A DNA stretch of 64,000 nt, taken from the IMG/VR virus record IMGVR_UViG_3300034093_001947; one strand, written 5' to 3'. Every line of letters begins with the position of its first letter. Positions within the stretch are counted from its first letter, which is position 1. The notes under the pieces were generated by a model, which saw nothing but the letters and a program-made list of their open reading frames with translations, was not told the DNA's origin and did not search any database. Position numbers and translations under genes: made by a program. Below, one piece after another: positions 2,096 to 50,333 of this stretch. Source of the DNA: a virus (lineage: Duplodnaviria; Heunggongvirae; Uroviricota; Caudoviricetes).

Positions 2096-2763
2096 AAGTT
2101 AAATTAATTTCGTCAAGCAAGCCCAGTCGCGAAATGTACGACGAAGGTCTGATGGATGCACAAGAGCTGATTGCGTTCTGTGCTCGGGTTAGTAACCCCT
2201 CTAACCAATTCAACATGGATACTGCTGACAAGCTGATCCGTTATTTGATCAAGCATAAACATTGGTCGCCACTTGAAATGGTATCAGCCTGTTTAGAAAT
2301 CGAAACTACCCGTGACATTGCTCGACAGATCCTGCGTCACCGTAGTTTCAGCTTCCAGGAGTTTAGTCAACGCTATGCAGATCCAACCAAAGACCTTGAC
2401 TTTGTTATCCGTGAAGCACGACTACAGGATACAAAGAATCGCCAGAACAGTGTTACCACTGATGATCATGAATTAATGGCTGAATGGAATCGCAGACAAC
2501 ATCAGGTTATCAACCTTGTCAAAGAAAATTATGCATGGGCCATTGAAAACGGCATTGCTAAAGAGCAGGCCCGTGCTATTCTACCAGAAGGCAACACAGT
2601 CAGTCGCTTGTATATGAACGGCACACTACGCTCATGGATTCACTTTATTGATCTACGTAGCGGCAATGGTACCCAGCTAGAGCACATGGAAGTTGCACGT
2701 GAGTGTGCTCGAGTAATTGCTGAAATCTTTCCAATGGCTACTGAGTATGTCCAGCCCCAGTGA
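2092..2763 (+). CDS. thyX: FAD-dependent thymidylate synthase
   Basis: ThyX signature RHRSFSFQEFSQRY (RHR…S.RY). Confidence 0.85.
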   Translation: MKVKLISSSKPSREMYDEGLMDAQELIAFCARVSNPSNQFNMDTADKLIRYLIKHKHWSPLEMVSACLEIETTRDIARQILRHRSFSFQEFSQRYADPTKDLDFVIREARLQDTKNRQNSVTTDDHELMAEWNRRQHQVINLVKENYAWAIENGIAKEQARAILPEGNTVSRLYMNGTLRSWIHFIDLRSGNGTQLEHMEVARECARVIAEIFPMATEYVQPQ

Positions 2764-3139
2764 TACGCTGAAAAAGTTTGCGGCTGAACACAATGTTCGA
2801 GTCATTGACTCAAATAAACGTGCCTACAAACATACTCGGGCTAATGTAAATCTATTTCATTATGAGACTGACTATAACAAGTTTCTTCAAGAGCATATAA
2901 CTTTTGAAACTGAAACTCTTTACACAGTTGAGATCAGTGAAAGTGAATTAGAACGCATTGCCGAGTTTGAAAGTCAGGTGTTCAACCATATGAAAAGTAA
3001 GGGTCATTATAATATGTTCGAAACCCTTATGGAACAAAAAGAACGTGAGCGAGCACTGCGTGATACATATCCAGCAGTTCGTAAAGCGTACGAACAATAT
3101 AGTCTAATGTTAAAATTAGCTCAGTCTGGAGAACTATGA
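2717..3139 (+). CDS. hypothetical protein
   Basis: ORF only. Confidence 0.4.
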   Translation: MLKSFQWLLSMSSPSDTLKKFAAEHNVRVIDSNKRAYKHTRANVNLFHYETDYNKFLQEHITFETETLYTVEISESELERIAEFESQVFNHMKSKGHYNMFETLMEQKERERALRDTYPAVRKAYEQYSLMLKLAQSGEL

Positions 3140-4202: not shown

Positions 4203-5024
4203 ATGCCATACGTACAAGGTGCAAGAGTTCACGGAGTAGTACACATTGCTGATGTGTATCGTAGCCCCAATGTTTTTACAAATAATGTTGCAACAGCATT
4301 ATGGTTAGAAGCTGGAACCAGTGCTGGCTTTGTTGGTATTGCTATTAATGCACCGCCATCGTTAGATCCAGCAGAGGCTGCTGCGGCAGTTGACCTTACC
4401 ACTGCCTATACCAGCAATCCTGATAGTTTTTATAATCCAGCGGCTGCGACTGACGGTGTAAAAGCTAACTTTCCCGGTACTCCTGAAGATACTACTACGT
4501 CAACTGGTATTACAGATGTTGCTACTGCTTCAGGTATTGTTCCTTTCTTAGCAGCTACTCTAGAAGAAGCAGGTCGAGGTATGTGGAGAGAAAGTGGCCA
4601 GGCTGGCGGGACCAGTAATAAAAATATCTTAAAGATATGGACAGCACTGGGGTTCTCTGGCAGTCCCTGGAATACCGACCAAACTGCATGGTGTATGGGA
4701 TTTGTTAACTTTGCATTAAAATGCTCAGGTAAACAATATGTGCAAACAGCCAGTGCAAAAGCTATTAAGCAAAATCCAGAGAGATGGGGTGCTACACAAG
4801 TTACACCTGCAACAGCACAGCCGGGTGACATTGTACTTTGGAAGTATAGTCATGTGAACTTTATCTATACCTTGAATGGTGGCAAAGCTACATTTGTTGG
4901 TGGCAATCAAACTCCTACGTCCGGCAAGAATAATAACCCCAGTGACGGAGATGTTACCATCAGTTACGCTGGTGGATCGCCATTAACTAATAACAACATT
5001 GACAGTATCTGGCGAGTAGCCTAA
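4203..5024 (+). CDS. CHAP-domain peptidoglycan hydrolase-like protein
   Basis: C-terminal region has a Cys (…TAWCMGFVNFAL…) and a downstream His (…YSHVNFIY…) spaced like the CHAP Cys-His pair. The N-terminus is Ala/Thr-rich. Confidence 0.5.
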   Translation: MPYVQGARVHGVVHIADVYRSPNVFTNNVATALWLEAGTSAGFVGIAINAPPSLDPAEAAAAVDLTTAYTSNPDSFYNPAAATDGVKANFPGTPEDTTTSTGITDVATASGIVPFLAATLEEAGRGMWRESGQAGGTSNKNILKIWTALGFSGSPWNTDQTAWCMGFVNFALKCSGKQYVQTASAKAIKQNPERWGATQVTPATAQPGDIVLWKYSHVNFIYTLNGGKATFVGGNQTPTSGKNNNPSDGDVTISYAGGSPLTNNNIDSIWRVA

Positions 5025-5560
5025 TGAAACAAAAATTTATCGATATGTATATGGATTGGGCAGAACGCACTGCTCAACTAAGCCACGCTCGTAGACTACA
5101 AGTCGGTGCTGTGATTGTTAAAGACGATAGTGTTATCAGCTACGGCTATAACGGCATGCCTTCTGGGTGGGACAACGATTGTGAAGACAAAGACTATATG
5201 AGTCGCGATGCGGGTGGCTGGTTAGACCCTGAAGAAATTTACGAAAGATGGCCTTTTGAAGAAACAGTAGTAGTCGCAAACGACAATGAAAGTTTTGAAA
5301 CATCTATGCGTTATCGACTTAAAACTAAACCAGAGGTCCTTCATGCTGAATCCAATGCAATTGCTAAGTTGGCCAAGTCTATCAACAGTGGTAACGGTGC
5401 TGGTATTTTCATTACTCATGCTCCGTGTATCGATTGTGCAAAACTCATATATCAAAGCGGTATCAGTAGTGTATACTATCGCAGTAGCTATCGTGATATT
5501 TCGGGGATCGAGTTTTTAGAAAAATCCGGAGTAAAAGTAGAACAGGTTGATAATAAATAA
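5024..5560 (+). CDS. cd: dCMP deaminase
   Basis: Cytidine/dCMP deaminase zinc motifs HAESNAI (HAE) and PCIDCA (PCxxC). Confidence 0.85.
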   Translation: MKQKFIDMYMDWAERTAQLSHARRLQVGAVIVKDDSVISYGYNGMPSGWDNDCEDKDYMSRDAGGWLDPEEIYERWPFEETVVVANDNESFETSMRYRLKTKPEVLHAESNAIAKLAKSINSGNGAGIFITHAPCIDCAKLIYQSGISSVYYRSSYRDISGIEFLEKSGVKVEQVDNK

Positions 5561-5615
5561 TTTGCCTGTCAAGCATCTGGACATAGTCCAGTTAGACATG
5601 TTGGGCGAGGACTTC

Positions 5616-5644
5616 TTGACAGCCTCGTCAAAATGTAGTATAAT
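5616..5644 (+). promoter_or_regulatory. consensus sigma70-type promoter upstream of the tmRNA
   Basis: TTGACA (5616-5621), a 17-nt spacer, then TATAAT (5639-5644). Confidence 0.65.
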
Positions 5645-5650
5645 TTAAGT

Positions 5651-6025
5651 TAAGACTGTATGAAGTAGACAGAAAAGGATTCAAGACGCGGGGGCAGTGC
5701 CCGCCAGGTCCACCATAAAACACATTAGCCTGACTGAAACGGGCATCGAGTACGTGGAACGTGGAAGAAGGTTCGATTCCTTCATACTCAATTTCAGTAG
5801 TGTGTTTTATAATGGGCCTGACACAGGATCGATTGGGTCACAAGTATTGAAATGGACAGTCCGGCAATGTAGAAGCCGTTAGGATTGGGGTGACCCGGTC
5901 GCAGAAGCAAAACAAAGTAACCGCAAACGACTCACAGTTCGCATTAGCTGCCTAAACTCAGCTTAGGGTAGTTATACCTCGTAACAGAAAATAACAGAAA
6001 GCACCTTCGGGTGCTTTTCTTTTGA
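5651..6025 (+). ncRNA. ssrA: tmRNA (SsrA), probably two-piece/permuted; tag peptide ANDSQFALAA
   Basis: In-frame tag GCA AAC GAC TCA CAG TTC GCA TTA GCT GCC TAA (5923-5955) encodes A-N-D-S-Q-F-A-L-A-A-stop. A tRNA-like 3' end, GACGCGGGGGCAGTGCCCGCCAGGTCCACCA (5686-5714), closely matches the E. coli tmRNA 3' end GACGCGGGUUCAACUCCCGCCAGCUCCACCA but lies upstream of the tag. A candidate 5' acceptor strand GGGCCTG (5814-5820) pairs with CAGGTCC. A terminator closes the gene. Confidence 0.6.
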
Positions 6026-6026
6026 C
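6000..6026 (+). terminator. rho-independent terminator ending the tmRNA transcript
   Basis: Hairpin GCACC-TTCG-GGTGC followed by TTTTCTTTT. Confidence 0.7.
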
Positions 6027-6052
6027 TAAATATTTGTCAGGAGGACACAACC

Positions 6053-6211
6053 ATGAAACAGAGAAAGCTAGTAGCTAAACTGTACAGGGCTTGCGTCGAC
6101 CACGATGCCGAGAAACAATACGAACTTCGTTTAAAAGAGTTCGCCAAAATCTTGAAACACAAGGCCGAAGGCAAACCGTTTACACACAAATGGACTTTGG
6201 TAAGGATTTAA
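6053..6211 (+). CDS. small hypothetical protein (52 aa)
   Basis: ATG preceded by AGGAGG. Encodes MKQRKLVAKLYRACVDHDAEKQYELRLKEF…, below the 60-aa cutoff of the ORF track. Confidence 0.45.
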   Translation: MKQRKLVAKLYRACVDHDAEKQYELRLKEFAKILKHKAEGKPFTHKWTLVRI

Positions 6212-23178: not shown

Positions 23179-24201
23179 ATGTCAAAAAAATATGATACCC
23201 TTGTCCTCATCGGACGTTTTCAACCGCTTCACTCAGCTCACTTAGAGATTATCAAGCGAGCCACAGCACTAACTGATCAACTTGTGATCATCTGCGGTAG
23301 TGCTAAACAACCCCGAACTTATAAAAACCCATTTACATTCGATGAACGTGCTCGAATGATCAAGTCAGCAACTGCTGGACTTGCTATGCAGATCTATGTT
23401 GAGCCAAATATTGACACTATCTATAACGATCAGGCATGGGCTGTTCGTGTCCAAGGTATTGTTTCTAAATACCGTGTACTAGGTGGTGCCGGAGTGGGCA
23501 TTATCGGTCATAAAAAAGATGACAGCTCATTCTACTTGGATATGTTCCCACAGTGGGGCTATGAAGATGTTGAATTAGTAGAATTCCTCAGTGCTGTAAA
23601 CATTCGCGATCTCTACTTCAAGCGTGATGTCAATATGAAGTTCATTAAAGGTGTAGTGCCAGAGTCTACTTTAGACTTTTTGGAGCAGTTCCGCACCACA
23701 GATCAATACGAACAGATCATCCGCGAACGTGAGTTCATCATAGAACACAATAAACAATATGCTGGATTGAAGTATCCTCCGATCTTCTCAACTGCTGATG
23801 CTGTGGTTATCTGCTCAGGACATGTATTAATGATTCGTCGTCGTGCTGAACCCGGTAAAGGATTGTGGGCATTGCCAGGCGGCTATGTTAACGCCAATAC
23901 GGATAAAAGCGTAGAGGATGCAGCCATTCGTGAACTGCGTGAAGAAACACTAATTAAAGTTCCTGCTCCGGTGTTGCGTGGTAGTATTAAACGTAGTAAG
24001 GTCTTTGATGCAGTTGACCGTAGTCCGCGAGGTCGTATTATCACTCACGCATTCCACATTGAACTGCCTGACGGCGAGCTGCCAAAGGTAAAAGGCGGCG
24101 ATGATGCTGAAAAAGCACGTTGGGTTCCTATTGCCGAAGTTCGCAGTGAAGAATGTTTCGAAGACCACTACGAAATCATACAACACTTCTTGGGAGCATA
24201 A
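23179..24201 (+). CDS. nadM: bifunctional NMN adenylyltransferase / Nudix hydrolase (NadM-Nudix type)
   Basis: N-terminal archaeal-type NMNAT motif LIGRFQPLHSAH, and a C-terminal Nudix box GGYVNANTDKSVEDAAIRELREETLI (G-x5-E-x7-REuxEExGu). Confidence 0.8.
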   Translation: MSKKYDTLVLIGRFQPLHSAHLEIIKRATALTDQLVIICGSAKQPRTYKNPFTFDERARMIKSATAGLAMQIYVEPNIDTIYNDQAWAVRVQGIVSKYRVLGGAGVGIIGHKKDDSSFYLDMFPQWGYEDVELVEFLSAVNIRDLYFKRDVNMKFIKGVVPESTLDFLEQFRTTDQYEQIIREREFIIEHNKQYAGLKYPPIFSTADAVVICSGHVLMIRRRAEPGKGLWALPGGYVNANTDKSVEDAAIRELREETLIKVPAPVLRGSIKRSKVFDAVDRSPRGRIITHAFHIELPDGELPKVKGGDDAEKARWVPIAEVRSEECFEDHYEIIQHFLGA

Positions 24202-24202
24202 T

Positions 24203-24379
24203 ATGAACGAACGAATTAAAGAACTTGCCGAACAGTGCCACCATCGGTATAGTGAACATAACATTGATTTGGAAAAGTTCGCCGAGTTGATTGTTCGGGA
24301 ATGTGCTAATGTTGCCGCTGATCATGATGCCTTGGACATTTACGAAGAGATTAGAGAACATTTTGGAGTTGAAGAATGA
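24203..24379 (+). CDS. small hypothetical protein, duplicate A
   Basis: MNERIKELAEQCHH…KFAELIVREC…HFGVEE; start moved to 24203 to remove the overlap with nadM. Confidence 0.45.
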   Translation: MNERIKELAEQCHHRYSEHNIDLEKFAELIVRECANVAADHDALDIYEEIREHFGVEE

Positions 24380-24612
24380 ATGGTACACCGGCAGACAAAA
24401 GCCCGGGCATAACGGGCTTTATTGAAATCTTTGAGGGCAGGCTTAACAAAATGAAGCTACACCTTAAAGAAGAATTGAGCAAGGCCAAACACGATAGAGA
24501 CCGTAAGTGGATTAAACATCAGCTGGCCGATGCTCGTAAACTCAACAAGACACTGAAAGAAATGCGTAATGCTTCAGCAAAGAAGTGTCCGCATTGTGGA
24601 GAGAAACTATGA
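24376..24612 (+). CDS. hypothetical basic protein with a C-terminal CPHCGEKL
   Basis: ORF between the two duplicates. Confidence 0.4.
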   Translation: MNGTPADKSPGITGFIEIFEGRLNKMKLHLKEELSKAKHDRDRKWIKHQLADARKLNKTLKEMRNASAKKCPHCGEKL

Positions 24613-24842
24613 ACGAACGAATTAGAGAACTTGCTGAACAGGCTGGAGTGGGCTTTATGTTTGATCCTGATGCAGTTGTATTAGCTTTTAAGATGGAAAA
24701 GTTCGCTGAACTGATTGTGAGAGAATGTATTAAAAAATGTAAGGACCATCCATCCATAATTTTTAAGAATGAATGGGATGCTGATGTTGTGGCTCCGGAC
24801 ATTGTCAGCAGATTAGAATCACATTTCGGAGTTGAAGAATGA
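24609..24842 (+). CDS. small hypothetical protein, duplicate B
   Basis: MNERIRELAEQAG…KFAELIVRECIKKC…HFGVEE is a paralog of the 24203 gene, with identical N- and C-terminal blocks. Confidence 0.45.
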   Translation: MNERIRELAEQAGVGFMFDPDAVVLAFKMEKFAELIVRECIKKCKDHPSIIFKNEWDADVVAPDIVSRLESHFGVEE

Positions 24843-25312
24843 CATTAAAACATACTAAAGGTAATCTACTCGACCTAGCAGAAGCAGGTGAGTTCGATGT
24901 TGTGGTACAAGGCTGTAATTGCTTTAACACAATGGGCGGCGGCATTGCCCGAGAGATCCGTGAACGATTTCCAATGTGTGCAGAGATCGATAATCTAACT
25001 GCCAAAGGCGATCATATGAAACTAGGTAACTGGACAGAATTTGACCAAGGTACTTTTATTATCATCAATGCCTACACTCAGTACAATATGAGTCAAGGTA
25101 CTGATGTGTTTGAGTACACTGCATTTCAATTGATACTTGAGAAATTAACATTTATGTACGGTAACAAACGTATTGGATTGCCTTACATTGGATGCGGACT
25201 TGCCGGTGGCGACCAGGAAACTATTTTGGATATGATCGAACGGTTTGCCGCCCAGATTGCTAAACGAAGTGGTCAGGTTACACTCGTTGAATTTAGCCAA
25301 AGAATTAGTTGA
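24839..25312 (+). CDS. macro domain (ADP-ribose-binding/processing) protein
   Basis: …VVVQGCNCFNTMGGGIAREI… fits the macro-domain N-x-x-N … GGG[VI]A motif; 157 aa. Confidence 0.6.
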   Translation: MTLKHTKGNLLDLAEAGEFDVVVQGCNCFNTMGGGIAREIRERFPMCAEIDNLTAKGDHMKLGNWTEFDQGTFIIINAYTQYNMSQGTDVFEYTAFQLILEKLTFMYGNKRIGLPYIGCGLAGGDQETILDMIERFAAQIAKRSGQVTLVEFSQRIS

Positions 25313-25390
25313 CGCAGAAATAGGTCTGTGTTATACTATAAACAAGTCCAAGCGATAGACGCCTGGCATAACAAGTAAAGGAACTTTACA

Positions 25391-26830
25391 ATGAAACTCG
25401 CAAAAAATCTTATCCTGAACACAGACTCGTACAAAGTCTCGATGTTCAAACAATACCCAGCAGGAACCACAGGTGTATATTCATATATTGAATCACGCGG
25501 TGGGCGTTACGATAGAACTGTATTCTTCGGACTACAGGCTTTTATCAAGGAATACCTACTTGCACCCATCACACAAGCAGATATTGACATTGCTGAAGAA
25601 ATTCTTACCCTACACGGTGAACCCTTTAACAGAGAAGGATGGCAGTATATTCTTGACCAGCACCAAGGATTCTTGCCCGTTGTTATCCGAGCAGTCCCTG
25701 AAGGAACTATTGTCCCTGTCAAAAACGTACTCGCTACCATTGAGAATACCGATCCAAAATGTTATTGGTTGACCACTTGGTTGGAAACTGCTCTGCTTCG
25801 TGCAGTGTGGTACGGTACTACTGTGGCAACACAAAGCTGGAAAATTAAACAAGTCATTCTTGACTACTTGGAGCGTACAGGTGACCCTACTACTATTGAT
25901 TTTAAACTGCACGACTTTGGTGCTCGCGGTGTATCTAGCCTCGAAAGTGCTGGGATCGGTTCTGCGGCTCACCTCGTTAACTTTATGGGAACGGATACCA
26001 TTACTGGTATTCTTTACGCTCGTGAGTATTATGGAGCTGGCATTGCTGGGTTTTCTATTCCTGCTGCCGAACATAGCACAATCACTTCTTGGGGTCGCGA
26101 CGGTGAAGTAGATGCTTACAGAAATATGCTTACTCAGTTCGCTCGTCCCGGTACTATCCTCGCTGTTGTTAGTGATAGTTACGATATCTACAACGCAGCC
26201 TCTAAGCTCTGGGGCGAAGAACTTCGCCAACAAGTTATCGATAGTGGTGCTACTGTTGTCATTCGCCCTGATAGCGGCGATCCTGTTGAAGTCAACCGTA
26301 AGCTAGTTGAGATCCTTGGATCCAAGTTCGGATACACTACTAACAGCAAAGGCTTCAAAGTCCTGAACAACGTCAGACTGATCCAAGGTGACGGTATTAA
26401 CGAACTTACTGTTCGCAGTATCCTCGGTGCGTTCATGGCCATGGGCTGGAGTGCCGATAACATTGCTTTTGGTATGGGCGGTGCTCTGTTACAGATTGTA
26501 GATCGTGATACTCAACAATTTGCAATGAAGTGCTCTGCAATGAGCCGTACTGTTAGAGTTGAAGATGGTGATCTCGGATCTGGTTTTAAAACTGAATGGT
26601 TTGATGTGATCAAAGACCCAGTCACTGATCCTGGCAAGAAGTCTAAGGCAGGCCGTGTTACACTGTGGACTAACAGTGGTGGCGAGTTTGCATCAGGGGT
26701 AACTGAACCTACTGGTTGGACTGATCGGGGAATCGGCGGGTGGACCAACGCACTGGTTCCAGTTTACTGGAACGGCAACCTGCACAAAGATTACACCTTT
26801 GAGGAAGTTCGAGCTAACGCTCGCAAATAA
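25391..26830 (+). CDS. nadV: nicotinamide phosphoribosyltransferase (Nampt/NadV)
   Basis: The N-terminal LILNTDSYKVSMFKQYP matches the Nampt N-terminus. Further Nampt-family blocks include …HDFGARGVSS… and …GGALLQ…; 479 aa. Confidence 0.85.
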   Translation: MKLAKNLILNTDSYKVSMFKQYPAGTTGVYSYIESRGGRYDRTVFFGLQAFIKEYLLAPITQADIDIAEEILTLHGEPFNREGWQYILDQHQGFLPVVIRAVPEGTIVPVKNVLATIENTDPKCYWLTTWLETALLRAVWYGTTVATQSWKIKQVILDYLERTGDPTTIDFKLHDFGARGVSSLESAGIGSAAHLVNFMGTDTITGILYAREYYGAGIAGFSIPAAEHSTITSWGRDGEVDAYRNMLTQFARPGTILAVVSDSYDIYNAASKLWGEELRQQVIDSGATVVIRPDSGDPVEVNRKLVEILGSKFGYTTNSKGFKVLNNVRLIQGDGINELTVRSILGAFMAMGWSADNIAFGMGGALLQIVDRDTQQFAMKCSAMSRTVRVEDGDLGSGFKTEWFDVIKDPVTDPGKKSKAGRVTLWTNSGGEFASGVTEPTGWTDRGIGGWTNALVPVYWNGNLHKDYTFEEVRANARK

Positions 26831-47637: not shown

Positions 47638-48285
47638 ATGAAACCTACCGTTGCCCTGTTTTTGTATGATCCTAAATGTAGCGTACAGTCAGGCAATGGA
47701 GTTATACGATCATTACAGTCACATTATAACTTTAAAATATTCAGCATCAATCCCTTAGAAGATAACTTCTTTGATGATGTAGACATGATAGTTATTCCTG
47801 GCGGCTTTGGTGATGCTAGTACATTTGACCGTGCATTTAAATATACTAAAGATAGAGTTAAAACATTTGTAAGCGGTGGTGGTAAGTATTTAGGTATATG
47901 CATGGGTGCGTATTGGGCCGGCCAACACTATTTTGATATACTGGACAGCGTTGATGCTGTTCAATACTCAACGCAACCCAATACAGATACACGCAGACCA
48001 CACGCTAAAAATATCAGTATAACTTGGAAAAACCAGCCAATGAATATGTTTTGGTATGATGGTTGTGCTTTAGTAGGTAACTCTGCTAAGTTTAACACCA
48101 TTGCCACATATGCAAACGGAGACGCTATGGCTATTATACAAAACAATATCGGTGTAATAGGTTGCCATCCAGAAAGTGAAAACTATTGGTACGATAGCTA
48201 CTCATGGATGGCGGGCAAGTATCACAATGGACAACATCACCGTCTGCTTTTAGACTTTGCTAACCAACTAAATACTGGATGTTGA
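47638..48285 (+). CDS. class-I glutamine amidotransferase-like fold protein
   Basis: …MIVIPGGFGDAS…GGKYLGICMGAY… (possible nucleophile elbow G-x-C-x-G). Confidence 0.4.
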   Translation: MKPTVALFLYDPKCSVQSGNGVIRSLQSHYNFKIFSINPLEDNFFDDVDMIVIPGGFGDASTFDRAFKYTKDRVKTFVSGGGKYLGICMGAYWAGQHYFDILDSVDAVQYSTQPNTDTRRPHAKNISITWKNQPMNMFWYDGCALVGNSAKFNTIATYANGDAMAIIQNNIGVIGCHPESENYWYDSYSWMAGKYHNGQHHRLLLDFANQLNTGC

Positions 48286-50333
48286 AAAAAATCCTAACAA
48301 GTCCATGGACAGCATTGCTGACATTGGCACTTATTTTAAGTATAAGAATTGCTGATCCTGTCTTTGTAGAAAGTATAAGACTACGCTATTTTGATACGCT
48401 GATTACATCTAAAGAAACTACTGTTAACAACATTGTTACAGTAAACATTGATGAAGGGAGCTTAGACAAATATGGACAATGGCCGTTACCTCGTGTTGAG
48501 TATTCCCGACTTATACGAGATTTATATCAGAGGGGAGCGGGCCTTGTGGTACTTAACGTACTCATGCCAGAAACAGATCGTACAGGTGGTGACAGTCAAC
48601 TGGGTAAAGCTCTAAAAGAATACCCAGTTGTATTAGGCAGCATTCCTGCACAGAAAACAAAGAACGAACCACGCAATCCCGGTTCGGCAGTATTAGGTCC
48701 TGAGTACTTGGATCAAATTATACAGTATCCGGGTTTGATTGCCAACGTACCTGTGTTAGAGAACGCAGCAGCAGGTGTTGGTATCGTAAACACACTGCCA
48801 GAAGTAGATGGTGTTAATCGCAGATTGCCGTTAATTGTCACAGTTGACGGTAAGTTATATCCTAGTCTAGCTATGGAAACACTCCGCGTAGCGGCAGGCG
48901 ATTCAACATTCCAAGTCAAGCTATTTGAAGGTGGAGTTGAGAAGATGCGTATACCTAAGTTTGGTCCTGTAGCAACAGATAACTTAGGTCGCATATGGAT
49001 TGATTGGAGTCAGGCAAGTCACAGCGTTAGTGCAGTAAACCTGCCAAAAGATCTAGCAGGTGCTATTGTTATCGTAGGCCCAACAGCCGCAGGTATTGCT
49101 AATCCATTACCCACTAGTAAGGGTGCAGTATTTCCACACGAAGTACAGGCCGCAGTAATAGGCACAATGATGAACAATGTAACTATCCAGCGTCCGGATT
49201 ACGCAGATGGTGTGGAAATTATTGTACTGTTAGCAGCAGGCGTACTATTATTATTTTTAACAAGGTGGGTATATGTTGGACTTGGAACAGTGGTTGCTCT
49301 TTCTATGGGTGGTGTTGCTGTCAGCATGTATGCTTATAGCCAGTATCTTTATCTGTTTGATGCTACTGCTTTTGTCAGTGGCATATTGCTTGTGGCATTA
49401 CATGCATACGGAGTTAAATTCGTAAGCGAGTTTTTACAGAAGCAGGCAATCAAGAAACAGTTTGCAGGTTACGCTAGTCCTACAGTGGTTAGATTACTGC
49501 AAGAAAATCCAGACCTTATTAAGAAGGGTGTTAAGAAAGAAGTCAGCATACTGTTTTCAGACTTACGTGGCTTTACACCCCTAGGTGAAAGCTTTGGTGA
49601 TGATGTTGCGGGGCTTACACGTATAATGAACGGCTACATGGACGCTATTACGCAACCTGTATTAGATGCAGACGGAATGATTATCAAGTACATCGGTGAT
49701 GCCAGTATGCACATACACAATGCACCCATTGAAGATCTTAATCACCCGTCAACAGCAGTTCGCACAGGATTAAAGATGCTTAGAGCTGTAGATACTTTTA
49801 ACCGAGACGTGATTGTTCCGCAAGGCAGACCACCAGTTGGTATGGGTGCAGGCATTAATACAGGATTGGGCTACATCGGTGAGATGGGCAGTACAGCTCG
49901 ACACAGTTACGATGTACTAGGCGATGCCGTTAGCACAGCCGCACGTATCGAAAGCAAGTGTAAAGAATACGGTTGCCTGTTATTAGTAGGTGGAGCAACC
50001 GTTCAACGATGTGCTGACGAGTTCTTCTTCCTTAAGATTGACGACCTAGCAGTTAAAGGTAAGAGTGTAGGAGTTGCTATCTATACAGTACTTGACCCTG
50101 ACGTAACTGTTGCCGCAGAATATTTGTTAGCACAAGAAACTCATAATGAAATGCACTCATGTTATAGACAGCAGAAATGGGACGATGCCATTACACTGTG
50201 TGAAGAACTGAAAGATGAGTTCGACGGGCAAATGAAAAAATACTACAGCATGTGGATAGAACGCTGTGAGTTTCAAAAGACTCAAATACTTCCAGCCGAC
50301 TGGAATGGCGTATTCATAGCCACAAGCAAGTAA
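48279..50333 (+). CDS. CHASE2 sensor domain-containing class III adenylate/guanylate cyclase
   Basis: N-terminal TM and a CHASE2-like region (…VNIDEGSLDKYGQWPLPR…LIRDLYQRGAGLVVLNV…), a TM cluster at about residues 300-370, then a cyclase homology domain (…ILFSDLRGFTPLGE…KYIGDASM…GINTG…). Confidence 0.7.
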   Translation: MLKKILTSPWTALLTLALILSIRIADPVFVESIRLRYFDTLITSKETTVNNIVTVNIDEGSLDKYGQWPLPRVEYSRLIRDLYQRGAGLVVLNVLMPETDRTGGDSQLGKALKEYPVVLGSIPAQKTKNEPRNPGSAVLGPEYLDQIIQYPGLIANVPVLENAAAGVGIVNTLPEVDGVNRRLPLIVTVDGKLYPSLAMETLRVAAGDSTFQVKLFEGGVEKMRIPKFGPVATDNLGRIWIDWSQASHSVSAVNLPKDLAGAIVIVGPTAAGIANPLPTSKGAVFPHEVQAAVIGTMMNNVTIQRPDYADGVEIIVLLAAGVLLLFLTRWVYVGLGTVVALSMGGVAVSMYAYSQYLYLFDATAFVSGILLVALHAYGVKFVSEFLQKQAIKKQFAGYASPTVVRLLQENPDLIKKGVKKEVSILFSDLRGFTPLGESFGDDVAGLTRIMNGYMDAITQPVLDADGMIIKYIGDASMHIHNAPIEDLNHPSTAVRTGLKMLRAVDTFNRDVIVPQGRPPVGMGAGINTGLGYIGEMGSTARHSYDVLGDAVSTAARIESKCKEYGCLLLVGGATVQRCADEFFFLKIDDLAVKGKSVGVAIYTVLDPDVTVAAEYLLAQETHNEMHSCYRQQKWDDAITLCEELKDEFDGQMKKYYSMWIERCEFQKTQILPADWNGVFIATSK

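Follow-up and report, generated by a model that had tools for sequence, protein, structure and literature searches.

Results

A permuted tmRNA gene in the window

The stretch of DNA analysed here, to which we refer as the window, comprises 64,000 nucleotides of the IMG/VR virus record IMGVR_UViG_3300034093_001947 (Caudoviricetes). Positions 5651-6026 of its plus strand hold what, judging from the sequence, we consider with high confidence to be a functional, phage-encoded and circularly permuted ssrA gene, that is, a gene for a transfer-messenger RNA (tmRNA) made in two pieces. In the permuted order an acceptor piece comes first, followed by an intervening sequence (IVS) and then by the coding piece, with a promoter upstream and a terminator at the 3' end; the predicted precursor, which the promoter and the intrinsic terminator bracket, measures 374 nt (~375). 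The gene lies between a dCMP deaminase gene (5024-5560, Pfam dCMP_cyt_deam_1) and a small open reading frame (ORF) that starts at 6053. A first-pass annotation, made from the letters alone, had proposed a permuted two-piece tmRNA at this site, a proposal that is borne out by the covariance models and by the covariation of the P2 helix described below; it was also right that the surrounding gap is free of protein genes, but it gave the length as 700 bp instead of 492 bp (5561-6052), since a 52-codon ORF starts at 6053.

The Rfam model of permuted tmRNA, RF04321 (tmRNA_permuted), matches the window at 5654-5955 over the full model (1-213) with 101.1 bits against a threshold of 47 and an E-value of 1.6e-18, and the match was reproduced in two further searches of the locus. 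The alphaproteobacterial two-piece model, RF01849, reaches 70.9 bits against a threshold of 50, and the betaproteobacterial model, RF01850, whose threshold is 84, gives 79.8 bits when 5560-6060 is searched and 87.3 bits when 5600-6040 is searched; its alignment spans the -10 box, both P2 strands, the tag region, the 3' pseudoknot and the terminator. On two relatives, L020 and L009, the same model scores 84.7 and 84.0 bits. The minimum free energy (MFE) fold of the whole precursor recovers the T-arm, the acceptor stem and the closing stem of the IVS (z = -3.65). The features of the locus are as follows.

5616-5644, plus strand: sigma-70-type promoter with -35 box TTGACA (5616-5621), 17-nt spacer and -10 box TATAAT (5639-5644), 12 of 12 consensus positions
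5651-5715, plus strand: acceptor piece, ~65 nt, from the Rfam alignment, the covariation of the P2 strands and the conservation of the 31-mer below
5654-5658, plus strand: outer 5' strand of P2, GACUG, within the acceptor piece
5678-5684, plus strand: inner 5' strand of P2, GAUUCAA, within the acceptor piece
5685-5715, plus strand: tRNA-like 3' half GACGCGGGGGCAGTGCCCGCCAGGTCCACCA (31-mer), read in the sequence
5688-5704, plus strand: T-arm GCGGG-GGCAGUG-CCCGC of the acceptor piece, 5-bp stem and 7-nt loop
5705-5711, plus strand: acceptor 3' strand CAGGUCC, followed by discriminator A (5712) and encoded CCA (5713-5715)
5716-5813, plus strand: IVS, 98 nt, between CCA and G1
5814-5922, plus strand: 5' part of the coding piece, from the Rfam alignments and covariation; it includes a D-loop analogue, ACACAGGAUCGA
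5814-5820, plus strand: acceptor 5' strand GGGCCUG, G1 being 5814
5833-5839, plus strand: inner 3' strand of P2, UUGGGUC, in the coding piece
5857-5861, plus strand: outer 3' strand of P2, CAGUC, in the coding piece
5862-5878, plus strand: P3 hairpin CGGC/GCCG, in the coding piece
5883-5900, plus strand: variable hairpin GAUUGGG-GUGA-CCCGGUC, GNRA-capped, between P3 and the tag
5917-5922, plus strand: pre-resume context GUAACC, directly before GCA
5923-5955, plus strand: tag frame GCA AAC GAC UCA CAG UUC GCA UUA GCU GCC UAA, ANDSQFALAA-stop
5945-5950 with 5959-5964, plus strand: stop-codon hairpin UAGCUG/CAGCUU, from compensatory changes in relatives
5966-5969 with 5976-5979 and 5971-5975 with 5991-5995, plus strand: 3' pseudoknot GGGU/ACCU and GUUAU/AUAAC, around a conserved CGUAACAGAA
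5997-6026, plus strand: intrinsic terminator GAAAGCACC-UUCG-GGUGCUUUU and U-run (hairpin 5997-6018), from a terminator scan, an inverted repeat and the terminal hairpin of the beta_tmRNA model

The consensus promoter and the strong terminator claimed for the locus are both in place, the former agreeing with the consensus at all twelve positions of its two boxes and the latter consisting of the hairpin at 5997-6018 and a T-run. Transcription is predicted to start near 5651, the beta_tmRNA model places its own gUAuAAU on the -10 box of the window, and the terminator probably marks the 3' end of the primary transcript. A promoter of like type and position is found in 26 of 116 relatives, the others being fed by an upstream tRNA instead. 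The region 5945-5995 is aligned by the alpha and beta tmRNA models alike. The acceptor strands GGGCCUG and CAGGUCC form 7 bp, of which the third is G3.U70 (G5816.U5709), with A73 (A5712) as discriminator; a G.U third pair and a discriminator A are the alanine identity elements common to tRNA-Ala and tmRNA. The tRNA-like 3' end had been recognized correctly, at coordinates that need a slight shift from 5686-5714 to 5685-5715, and the tag frame had been read exactly, with GCA to GCC at 5923-5952 and TAA at 5953-5955.

Conservation of structure and tag among relatives

Relatives of the gene were defined as IMG/VR contigs that carry the exact 31-mer at 5685-5715, of which there are at least 117, and covariation was assessed over 63 distinct mature sequences. 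The 31-mer is identical in the relatives by retrieval, and the 5' acceptor strand served to locate each gene, so that no covariation is inferred from either. Within this set the outer P2 helix is paired in 95% of cells, with compensatory changes at three of its five pairs, and the inner P2 helix in 97%, with double changes compensating four of seven pairs; position 31:122 of the latter is A-U in 50 sequences and G-C in 12. The values are 96% and three of four pairs for P3, and 97% and four of seven pairs for the variable hairpin, and control registers shifted by 1-2 nt are paired at 5-61% overall and at 14-54% for P2. Compensatory changes are likewise present in the stop-codon hairpin and the 3' pseudoknot, where the alignment is gapped and the pair counts are weaker, and the terminator hairpins at the equivalent site covary among relatives. 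The variable hairpin is deleted in some relatives (L013, L020). In others it is expanded by a structured insert of ~40 nt; the same position was compared in L001, L002, L005, L006, L021, L028, L044 and L103.

Of 104 complete coding pieces, 101 have an unbroken tag frame. These 101 loci carry 22 distinct tags, the commonest being the ANDSQFALAA of the window (30 loci), and 95 of them end in LAA, MAA or IAA. UA stands at -5/-4 before the resume codon in every one of the 101 tagged relatives, and likewise in the window, a dinucleotide which we take to be the equivalent of U85-A86 in E. coli tmRNA. The resume-codon context is thus present, and no ordinary one-piece gene, in which the 3' tRNA-like domain would follow the tag, was found at the locus; the first-pass annotation had named both as points on which its proposal could fail. 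Structure and tag together indicate that selection acts on the gene in two capacities, as an RNA and as a template for the tag.

Relation to known tmRNAs

Phage two-piece tmRNAs are already published, and the window gene adds one to the known set. Buchholz et al. 2022 (PMC9004378) list 53 two-piece molecules among 133 unique phage tmRNAs, 50 from marine or aquatic phages and with Caulobacter phages included, so that calling a phage with its own permuted ssrA unusual was an overstatement; the 2025 tmRNA database counts 79 phage sequences (PMC11915505). To this set the relatives add a family of at least 117 contigs. With the described members of RF04321 (Keiler, Shapiro & Williams 2000; Sharkady & Williams 2004; Williams et al. 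2025, PMC11915505) the window gene shares the gene order, the tRNA-Ala-like domain, the P2 helices and the GCA resume codon, and it differs from them in being phage-encoded and in having an IVS of 98 nt with a 12-bp closing stem.

The assignment to a subtype is less clear. RF01850 is the highest-scoring subtype model (87.3 bits), and its consensus tag A-N-D-E-H-F-A-M-A-A compares with ANDSQFALAA in the window, but the score straddles the threshold of 84, the T-loop reads GGCAGUG where the model has UUCGAUU, and the IVS is about three times as long as that of the model. RF01849 scores above its threshold and has the 3' motif GCAACAGAA / GUAACAGAA in common with the window gene, and the T-arm CGGGGG-CAGUG-CCCG with the G.U pair and ACCA occurs in at least 120 genome contigs, nearly all of them alphaproteobacterial among the matches listed. 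In contrast, the tags in a sample of 114 alphaproteobacterial genes read ANDN... and have 10-24 residues, and the score of RF01849 is below that of the beta model on the same RNA, so membership of a subtype is not exclusive.

Several observations weigh against the interpretation of the locus as a functional tmRNA gene. The subtype is mixed, the T-loop being of the alpha type while body and tag are nearer the beta model, which leaves the host class ambiguous. ARAGORN, the program with which the first-pass annotation proposed to check the locus, calls no tmRNA in the window or in 5500-6100, and 14 tRNAs in the window. The second stem of pseudoknot PK1 was not identified in the window type, where P3 and the variable hairpin alone are supported, and SmpB gave no tblastn match in the 64-kb window (best E >5) with approximate query sequences, the genome extending beyond the window. 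The silence of ARAGORN we ascribe to a limit of its sensitivity, since it calls a permuted tmRNA in 18 of 117 relatives with an identical tRNA-like core, some of them with an IVS of 220-232 nt. A second stem of PK1 is seen only in the divergent relatives L023 and L102, the window type having the GNRA-capped hairpin at this place, and the middle P2 segment of the RF04321 model is not paired in the register of the model (NC marks). PK1 apart, the window gene appears to pass the sequence tests that define the family of permuted two-piece tmRNAs.

With alpha and beta features mixed, the class of the host cannot be read from the tmRNA, and the mixture warns against inferring hosts from tmRNA subtype in general. 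Mismatches between the type of a phage tmRNA and its host are found in Melnitz (PMC9004378) and in Xanthomonas phage X1. We located permuted tmRNAs of 77-112 bits, unannotated in the deposited records, in four isolates, Caulobacter phage CcrPW (L238), Erythrobacter phage XM05 (L239), Mesorhizobium phage Cp1R7A-A1 (L240) and Xanthomonas phage X1 (L241), and the standard annotation tool ARAGORN misses the member in the window. As in the two-piece tmRNAs of phage isolates (Melnitz and the pelagimyophages, PMC9004378; CcrPW, XM05, Cp1R7A-A1 and X1), which often lie beside tRNA genes, the gene is phage-encoded, and as in the four isolates examined, whose IVSs of ~80-95 nt have a closing stem of ~9-12 bp followed by a (Y)UGAU leader, its IVS is framed by a stem and a leader; with the isolates, only 30-40 nt of the tRNA-like domain can be aligned by blastn. 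A glutamine riboswitch as reported for Melnitz was not found in Rfam scans of the window and the locus. The opposite strand carries an annotated 'hypothetical protein' coding sequence in XM05 and Cp1R7A-A1, which overlaps the tmRNA at its 3' end or lies just past it.

The intervening sequence as an exchangeable cassette

In the window the IVS is closed by a 12-bp stem (5716-5727 with 5798-5809), which is followed by the leader UAAU (5810-5813) with a U at -1 of G1. The MFE of the IVS is -26.7 kcal/mol (z = -2.8), and the closing stem was also scored as an inverted repeat. Over the 63 sequences this stem is 92% paired and shows compensatory changes at 11 of its 12 pairs. The relatives hold 64 distinct versions of the IVS, 27-382 nt in length with a median of 96; the median is 30 nt in the 114 alphaproteobacterial genes that share the T-arm. 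The frame is constant throughout: in all versions the closing stem begins immediately after CCA and leaves 4-5 nt before G1, a leader T(A/T)T(G/A)AT follows it in 55 of the 64, and 62 have a U at -1 of G1. The ACCA is unpaired and lies opposite the 4-nt leader in a 4x4 internal loop. The TATAAT to which the first-pass annotation drew attention before the acceptor strand GGGCCTG (5814-5820) is present, as is the strand itself, but as a second promoter it was rejected, for it has no -35 element, abuts G1 and falls in the conserved leader, which contains a stop codon.

The content of the frame, and its association with the rest of the gene, varies freely. The 98-nt IVS of the window recurs with 100% identity in L011 and L071, in whose P2 strands 24 of 86 positions differ from the window; an unrelated IVS of 70 nt is found in four contigs that match the window exactly in their P2 strands (the contigs compared with the window IVS being L011, L071, L012, L058, L089 and L116). 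Among the relatives there are 109 contig pairs in which the P2 strands are identical and the IVSs different. This pattern identifies the IVS as an exchangeable cassette, closed by a stem, whose movement is independent of the tmRNA backbone. In these phages a spacer that has to be cut out is a framed cassette swapped among backbones rather than junk, and it is this behaviour that could be the new part of the present findings.

The IVS of the window has neither an ORF nor a Shine-Dalgarno sequence, and an Rfam scan of 5560-6060 returned no family match in 5716-5813, whether to a ribozyme, a riboswitch or RF00005, at E up to 5; together with ARAGORN, this permissive scan rules out a tRNA gene, ribozyme or riboswitch as its identity. 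An 8-nt complementarity between 5658-5665 and 5780-5787 has the length expected by chance in 500 nt. In L005, ~30-110 nt upstream of the tmRNA core, there is a remnant reading ...TCTTTATGAT / GAGCCTGTAACAAGG, preceded by the C-terminus of an IVS-ORF family (...KVYDIVTKIKSL), which looks like a partial duplication of the IVS and its junction with the 5' acceptor strand upstream of the intact gene.

Small protein genes in the intervening sequences of relatives

In 25 of the 64 IVS versions (32 loci), or ~40%, the slot is filled by an ORF. An AAGGA Shine-Dalgarno sequence directly follows the CCA, and the start codon comes 9-12 nt into the IVS. The ORF terminates at the TGA of TATGAT in 20 distinct versions, leaving exactly 1 nt between its stop codon and G1. 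The ORFs have 20-123 codons and belong to unrelated families; examples are found in L017, L030, L008, L019, L046, L091, L036, L054, L048, L060, L090, L018, L095, L025, L027, L002, L015 and others. Two match Pfam families above threshold, DUF2061 (3.5e-20), of which L017 carries a member, and DUF6356 (7e-10), and in the four informative pairs of homologous ORFs dN/dS is 0.10-0.15, which points to purifying selection. Most of them end in -SL or -FL, because their last codons double as the 3' side of the closing stem, the strand opposite the Shine-Dalgarno region. The genes that bear them still score 79-105 bits as permuted tmRNA in Rfam.

Literature searches, and the portion of Williams et al. 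2025 (PMC11915505) consulted, gave no mention of ORFs in the IVSs of tmRNAs and, a remark on a tRNA aside, no report of IVS structure; that portion describes a tRNA-Ala gene in one IVS ('a unique feature') and a repetitive element in another. The ORFs, the purifying selection on them and the exchange of the cassettes are results of the present analysis. The ORFs may be expressed from the tmRNA precursor, and, as the closing stem is made up of the Shine-Dalgarno sequence on one side and the last codons on the other, cargo translation may be coupled to tmRNA maturation: ribosomes would load ahead of the transcription of the closing stem, whose formation and cleavage would have to wait for translation to stop. 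Tentatively, and with more doubt than conviction, we propose that the IVS as a whole is a dedicated slot, exchangeable by recombination, within a strongly transcribed RNA gene, in which the invariant tRNA-like halves serve as homology arms, the closing stem frames an insert that may be a structured RNA or a small protein gene, and translation of the cargo is mechanically coupled to maturation. Should the precursor serve as the message for the IVS proteins, phages would have a new way of placing accessory genes under a strong RNA-gene promoter, and here would be a natural case of translation and RNA processing competing for one stem.

The IVSs of L057 and L081 share a conserved small membrane-like ORF (M(K/RD)LEWY.I.LCLAVP.NYFYW...) that has no stop before G1 and runs 34 nt into the coding piece; because it runs past G1, cleavage by RNase P would leave a non-stop message.

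The second T-arm of the window

The IVS of the window contains a second T-arm, which had been noticed from the sequence and left unexplained, and which we can now place in the variable cassette.

5748-5789, plus strand: tRNA 'top-half'-like module, with a 5-bp stem GAGUA (5748-5752) / UACUC (5785-5789) under the T-arm
5767-5783, plus strand: second T-arm GAAGG-UUCGAUU-CCUUC, inside the IVS, read in the sequence

ARAGORN made no tRNA call in 5500-6100, the module at 5748-5789 included, or in any of the IVSs of 117 relatives, and RF00005 gave no hit to the module at E up to 5. A 16-mer of it, AGGTTCGATTCCTTCA, is identical to 61335-61350, the T-arm of a tRNA-like gene at 61273-61360 of the window, and the module most likely derives from such a phage tRNA-like gene. 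The second T-arm is cargo of the exchangeable, stem-closed cassette and not a second tRNA-like domain of the tmRNA. A tRNA-type sequence inside the IVS of a permuted tmRNA has a counterpart in GCA-2688965 sp002688965.2, for which Williams et al. 2025 report an intact, complete tRNA-Ala gene; the window IVS differs in having the T-arm and the 5-bp stem only.

Rather than inert debris of recombination, the module could be a working signal for processing or stability, which recruits RNase P, a tRNA-modifying enzyme or the CCA-adding enzyme for excision or decay of the IVS. T-arm-like hairpins do recur across five unrelated IVS types, with nine of them in 7 of the 64 versions against a mean of 0.74 and a maximum of 4 in shuffled sequences; the T-arms of L009, L043 and L110 lie directly against the closing stem's 3' strand, in the fashion of a tRNA; the complete tRNA-Ala just mentioned is a precedent; and, after a cut by RNase P at G1, the IVS hairpin would still be attached 3' of the CCA and would need an endonuclease. 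The signal cannot be a required one, however, as 57 of the 64 versions have no T-arm, and in the window the module is internal, which would place an RNase P cut measured from it near 5746 and away from the CCA. In folding energy the module does not stand out from shuffled sequence (z = -0.5), the MFE fold favours another pairing, the IVS in question exists in only two variants and offers no covariation for the module, and simple descent from a tRNA gene fits the exact 16-mer shared with 61335-61350. We regard a working signal as the less likely reading and prefer to see the T-arm as a tRNA-derived fragment carried as cargo. One specific form of the signal, a T-arm-guided RNase P cut at the CCA, was rejected as a candidate because the stem lengths in L009, L043 and the window mismatch the 12-bp measuring rule, and it is kept only as a rival of low confidence.

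The acceptor stem of the gene at 61273-61360 has 8 bp; the gene further has a long internal arm and encodes its ACCA. It is missed by default ARAGORN and by the Rfam tRNA model, reaches 30.7 bits against a threshold of 47 with Rfam tRNA-Sec, and is called tRNA-Ser(gct) with an intron by relaxed ARAGORN. At the head of the tRNA cluster, between two other hairpins, lies a hairpin element like the tmRNA IVS (61122-61210), which has a 16-bp closing stem (AAAGCATATAC.../...GTATGTGCTTT), a shared motif GCCTGACTG(C)AAACG and a T-arm GGGG-TTCGAAT-CCCC, and of which L060 has a homologue with 85% identity.

Proposed maturation and function

The CCA end must be free for aminoacylation, which calls for cuts on either side of the IVS, and the precursor would accordingly be cut on both sides of the 98 nt. 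Host RNase P would cut 5' of G5814, where the conserved U at -1 and the unpaired ACCA in the 4x4 internal loop are found, and an endonuclease followed by 3' trimming would free A5715, a step for which RNase III (on the 12-bp stem), RNase E and a further cut by RNase P are candidates. Two RNAs would result, the acceptor RNA (~65 nt) and the coding RNA (~210 nt), which base pairing would keep joined. The acceptor RNA would then be charged by host AlaRS, and host SmpB, given that a weak test found none in the 64 kb, would together with EF-Tu deliver the RNA to stalled ribosomes, where a degron of the ClpXP type would be added and the ribosome released. The translation apparatus might in this way be kept free while mRNA is degraded by the phage or by host defence. 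The steps of processing, charging and tagging are modelled on the two-piece tmRNA of Caulobacter (Keiler, Shapiro & Williams 2000, as cited in PMC9004378 and PMC11915505), and the reasons suggested for phage tmRNAs are upkeep of the translation machinery, recycling of host proteins (PMC9004378) and interference with host tagging (PMC5648845).

A different function would be that the RNA counters trans-translation of the host, either as a decoy that titrates SmpB or AlaRS or by replacing the host tag and letting phage products escape tagging, as proposed for the RNA of DS6A, which consists of the tRNA-like domain only, and for phage Lacusarx. A molecule of this kind, like that of mycobacteriophage DS6A, strongly inhibits tmRNA (PMC4131195), a phage tmRNA may counteract host tagging (PMC5648845), the consensus promoter of the window would give high expression, and no phage SmpB was found with the approximate queries. 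Against such a role, the gene contains a full and conserved mRNA-like domain and not the tRNA-like domain alone, the stop codon and its hairpin are conserved, and the tags still signal degradation, as 75 of the 101 tagged relatives keep LAA, the usual degron ending, and another 20 have MAA or IAA. We thus consider it very improbable that the RNA works against the host system. Finally, integration at tmRNA genes is common, and ssrA fragments are frequent in prophages (PMC9004378, PMC4131195), but that the locus is a non-functional passenger, left as a fragment of host ssrA by imprecise prophage excision or as an attP-type duplicate of an integration site, can practically be dismissed, given that the gene is complete with both pieces, tag, promoter and terminator of its own, that the compensatory changes in its helices and the tag frame kept in 101 of 104 relatives exclude a dead ssrA fragment, that its 28-mer core was looked for in 185,579 bacterial and archaeal species (one genome each) and matched exactly in none, and that the genome resembles that of a virulent phage.

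Phage lineage and neighbouring elements

Proteins encoded in the window include RNR, rIIA, rIIB, NAMPT and an NMNAT/NUDIX protein, and with rIIA/rIIB and RNR the genome looks like that of a virulent large phage. These genes speak for a viral origin, as does the core, which is present in at least 117 viral contigs and was matched exactly in none of the bacterial and archaeal genomes, a search that identified no host. About 40 viral loci share neighbours of the window gene (a CHAP-domain protein, the dCMP deaminase, a metallophosphatase and a glycosyltransferase) in the same orientation and at 50-95% amino-acid identity, which places the gene in a lineage of large phages. A blastn search of the locus against 50,697 phage records gave no match at default E, and at an E of 10 only matches of 30-40 nt to the tRNA-like domain or the terminator.

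The 52-codon ORF downstream of the gene (6053-6211) begins 27 nt past the tmRNA terminator with a strong GGAGG Shine-Dalgarno sequence and has a homologue close to the tmRNA in one relative only. No GOLLD RNA was found in the window by the Rfam scan; L011, whose tmRNA carries the exact IVS of the window, has one ~1.5 kb downstream of that gene, at 2633-3098 (RF02032, 202 bits), with a nested tRNA. A possible amber suppressor follows the tmRNA gene in L063 and L077, where ARAGORN calls a CUA-anticodon tRNA (labelled tRNA-Pyl) some 350-450 nt past the tmRNA core. Elsewhere in the window, a fusion of a CHASE2 sensor with an adenylate/guanylate cyclase is encoded at 48279-50333, and NAMPT and the NMNAT/NUDIX protein form an NAD-salvage pair at 23179-26830.

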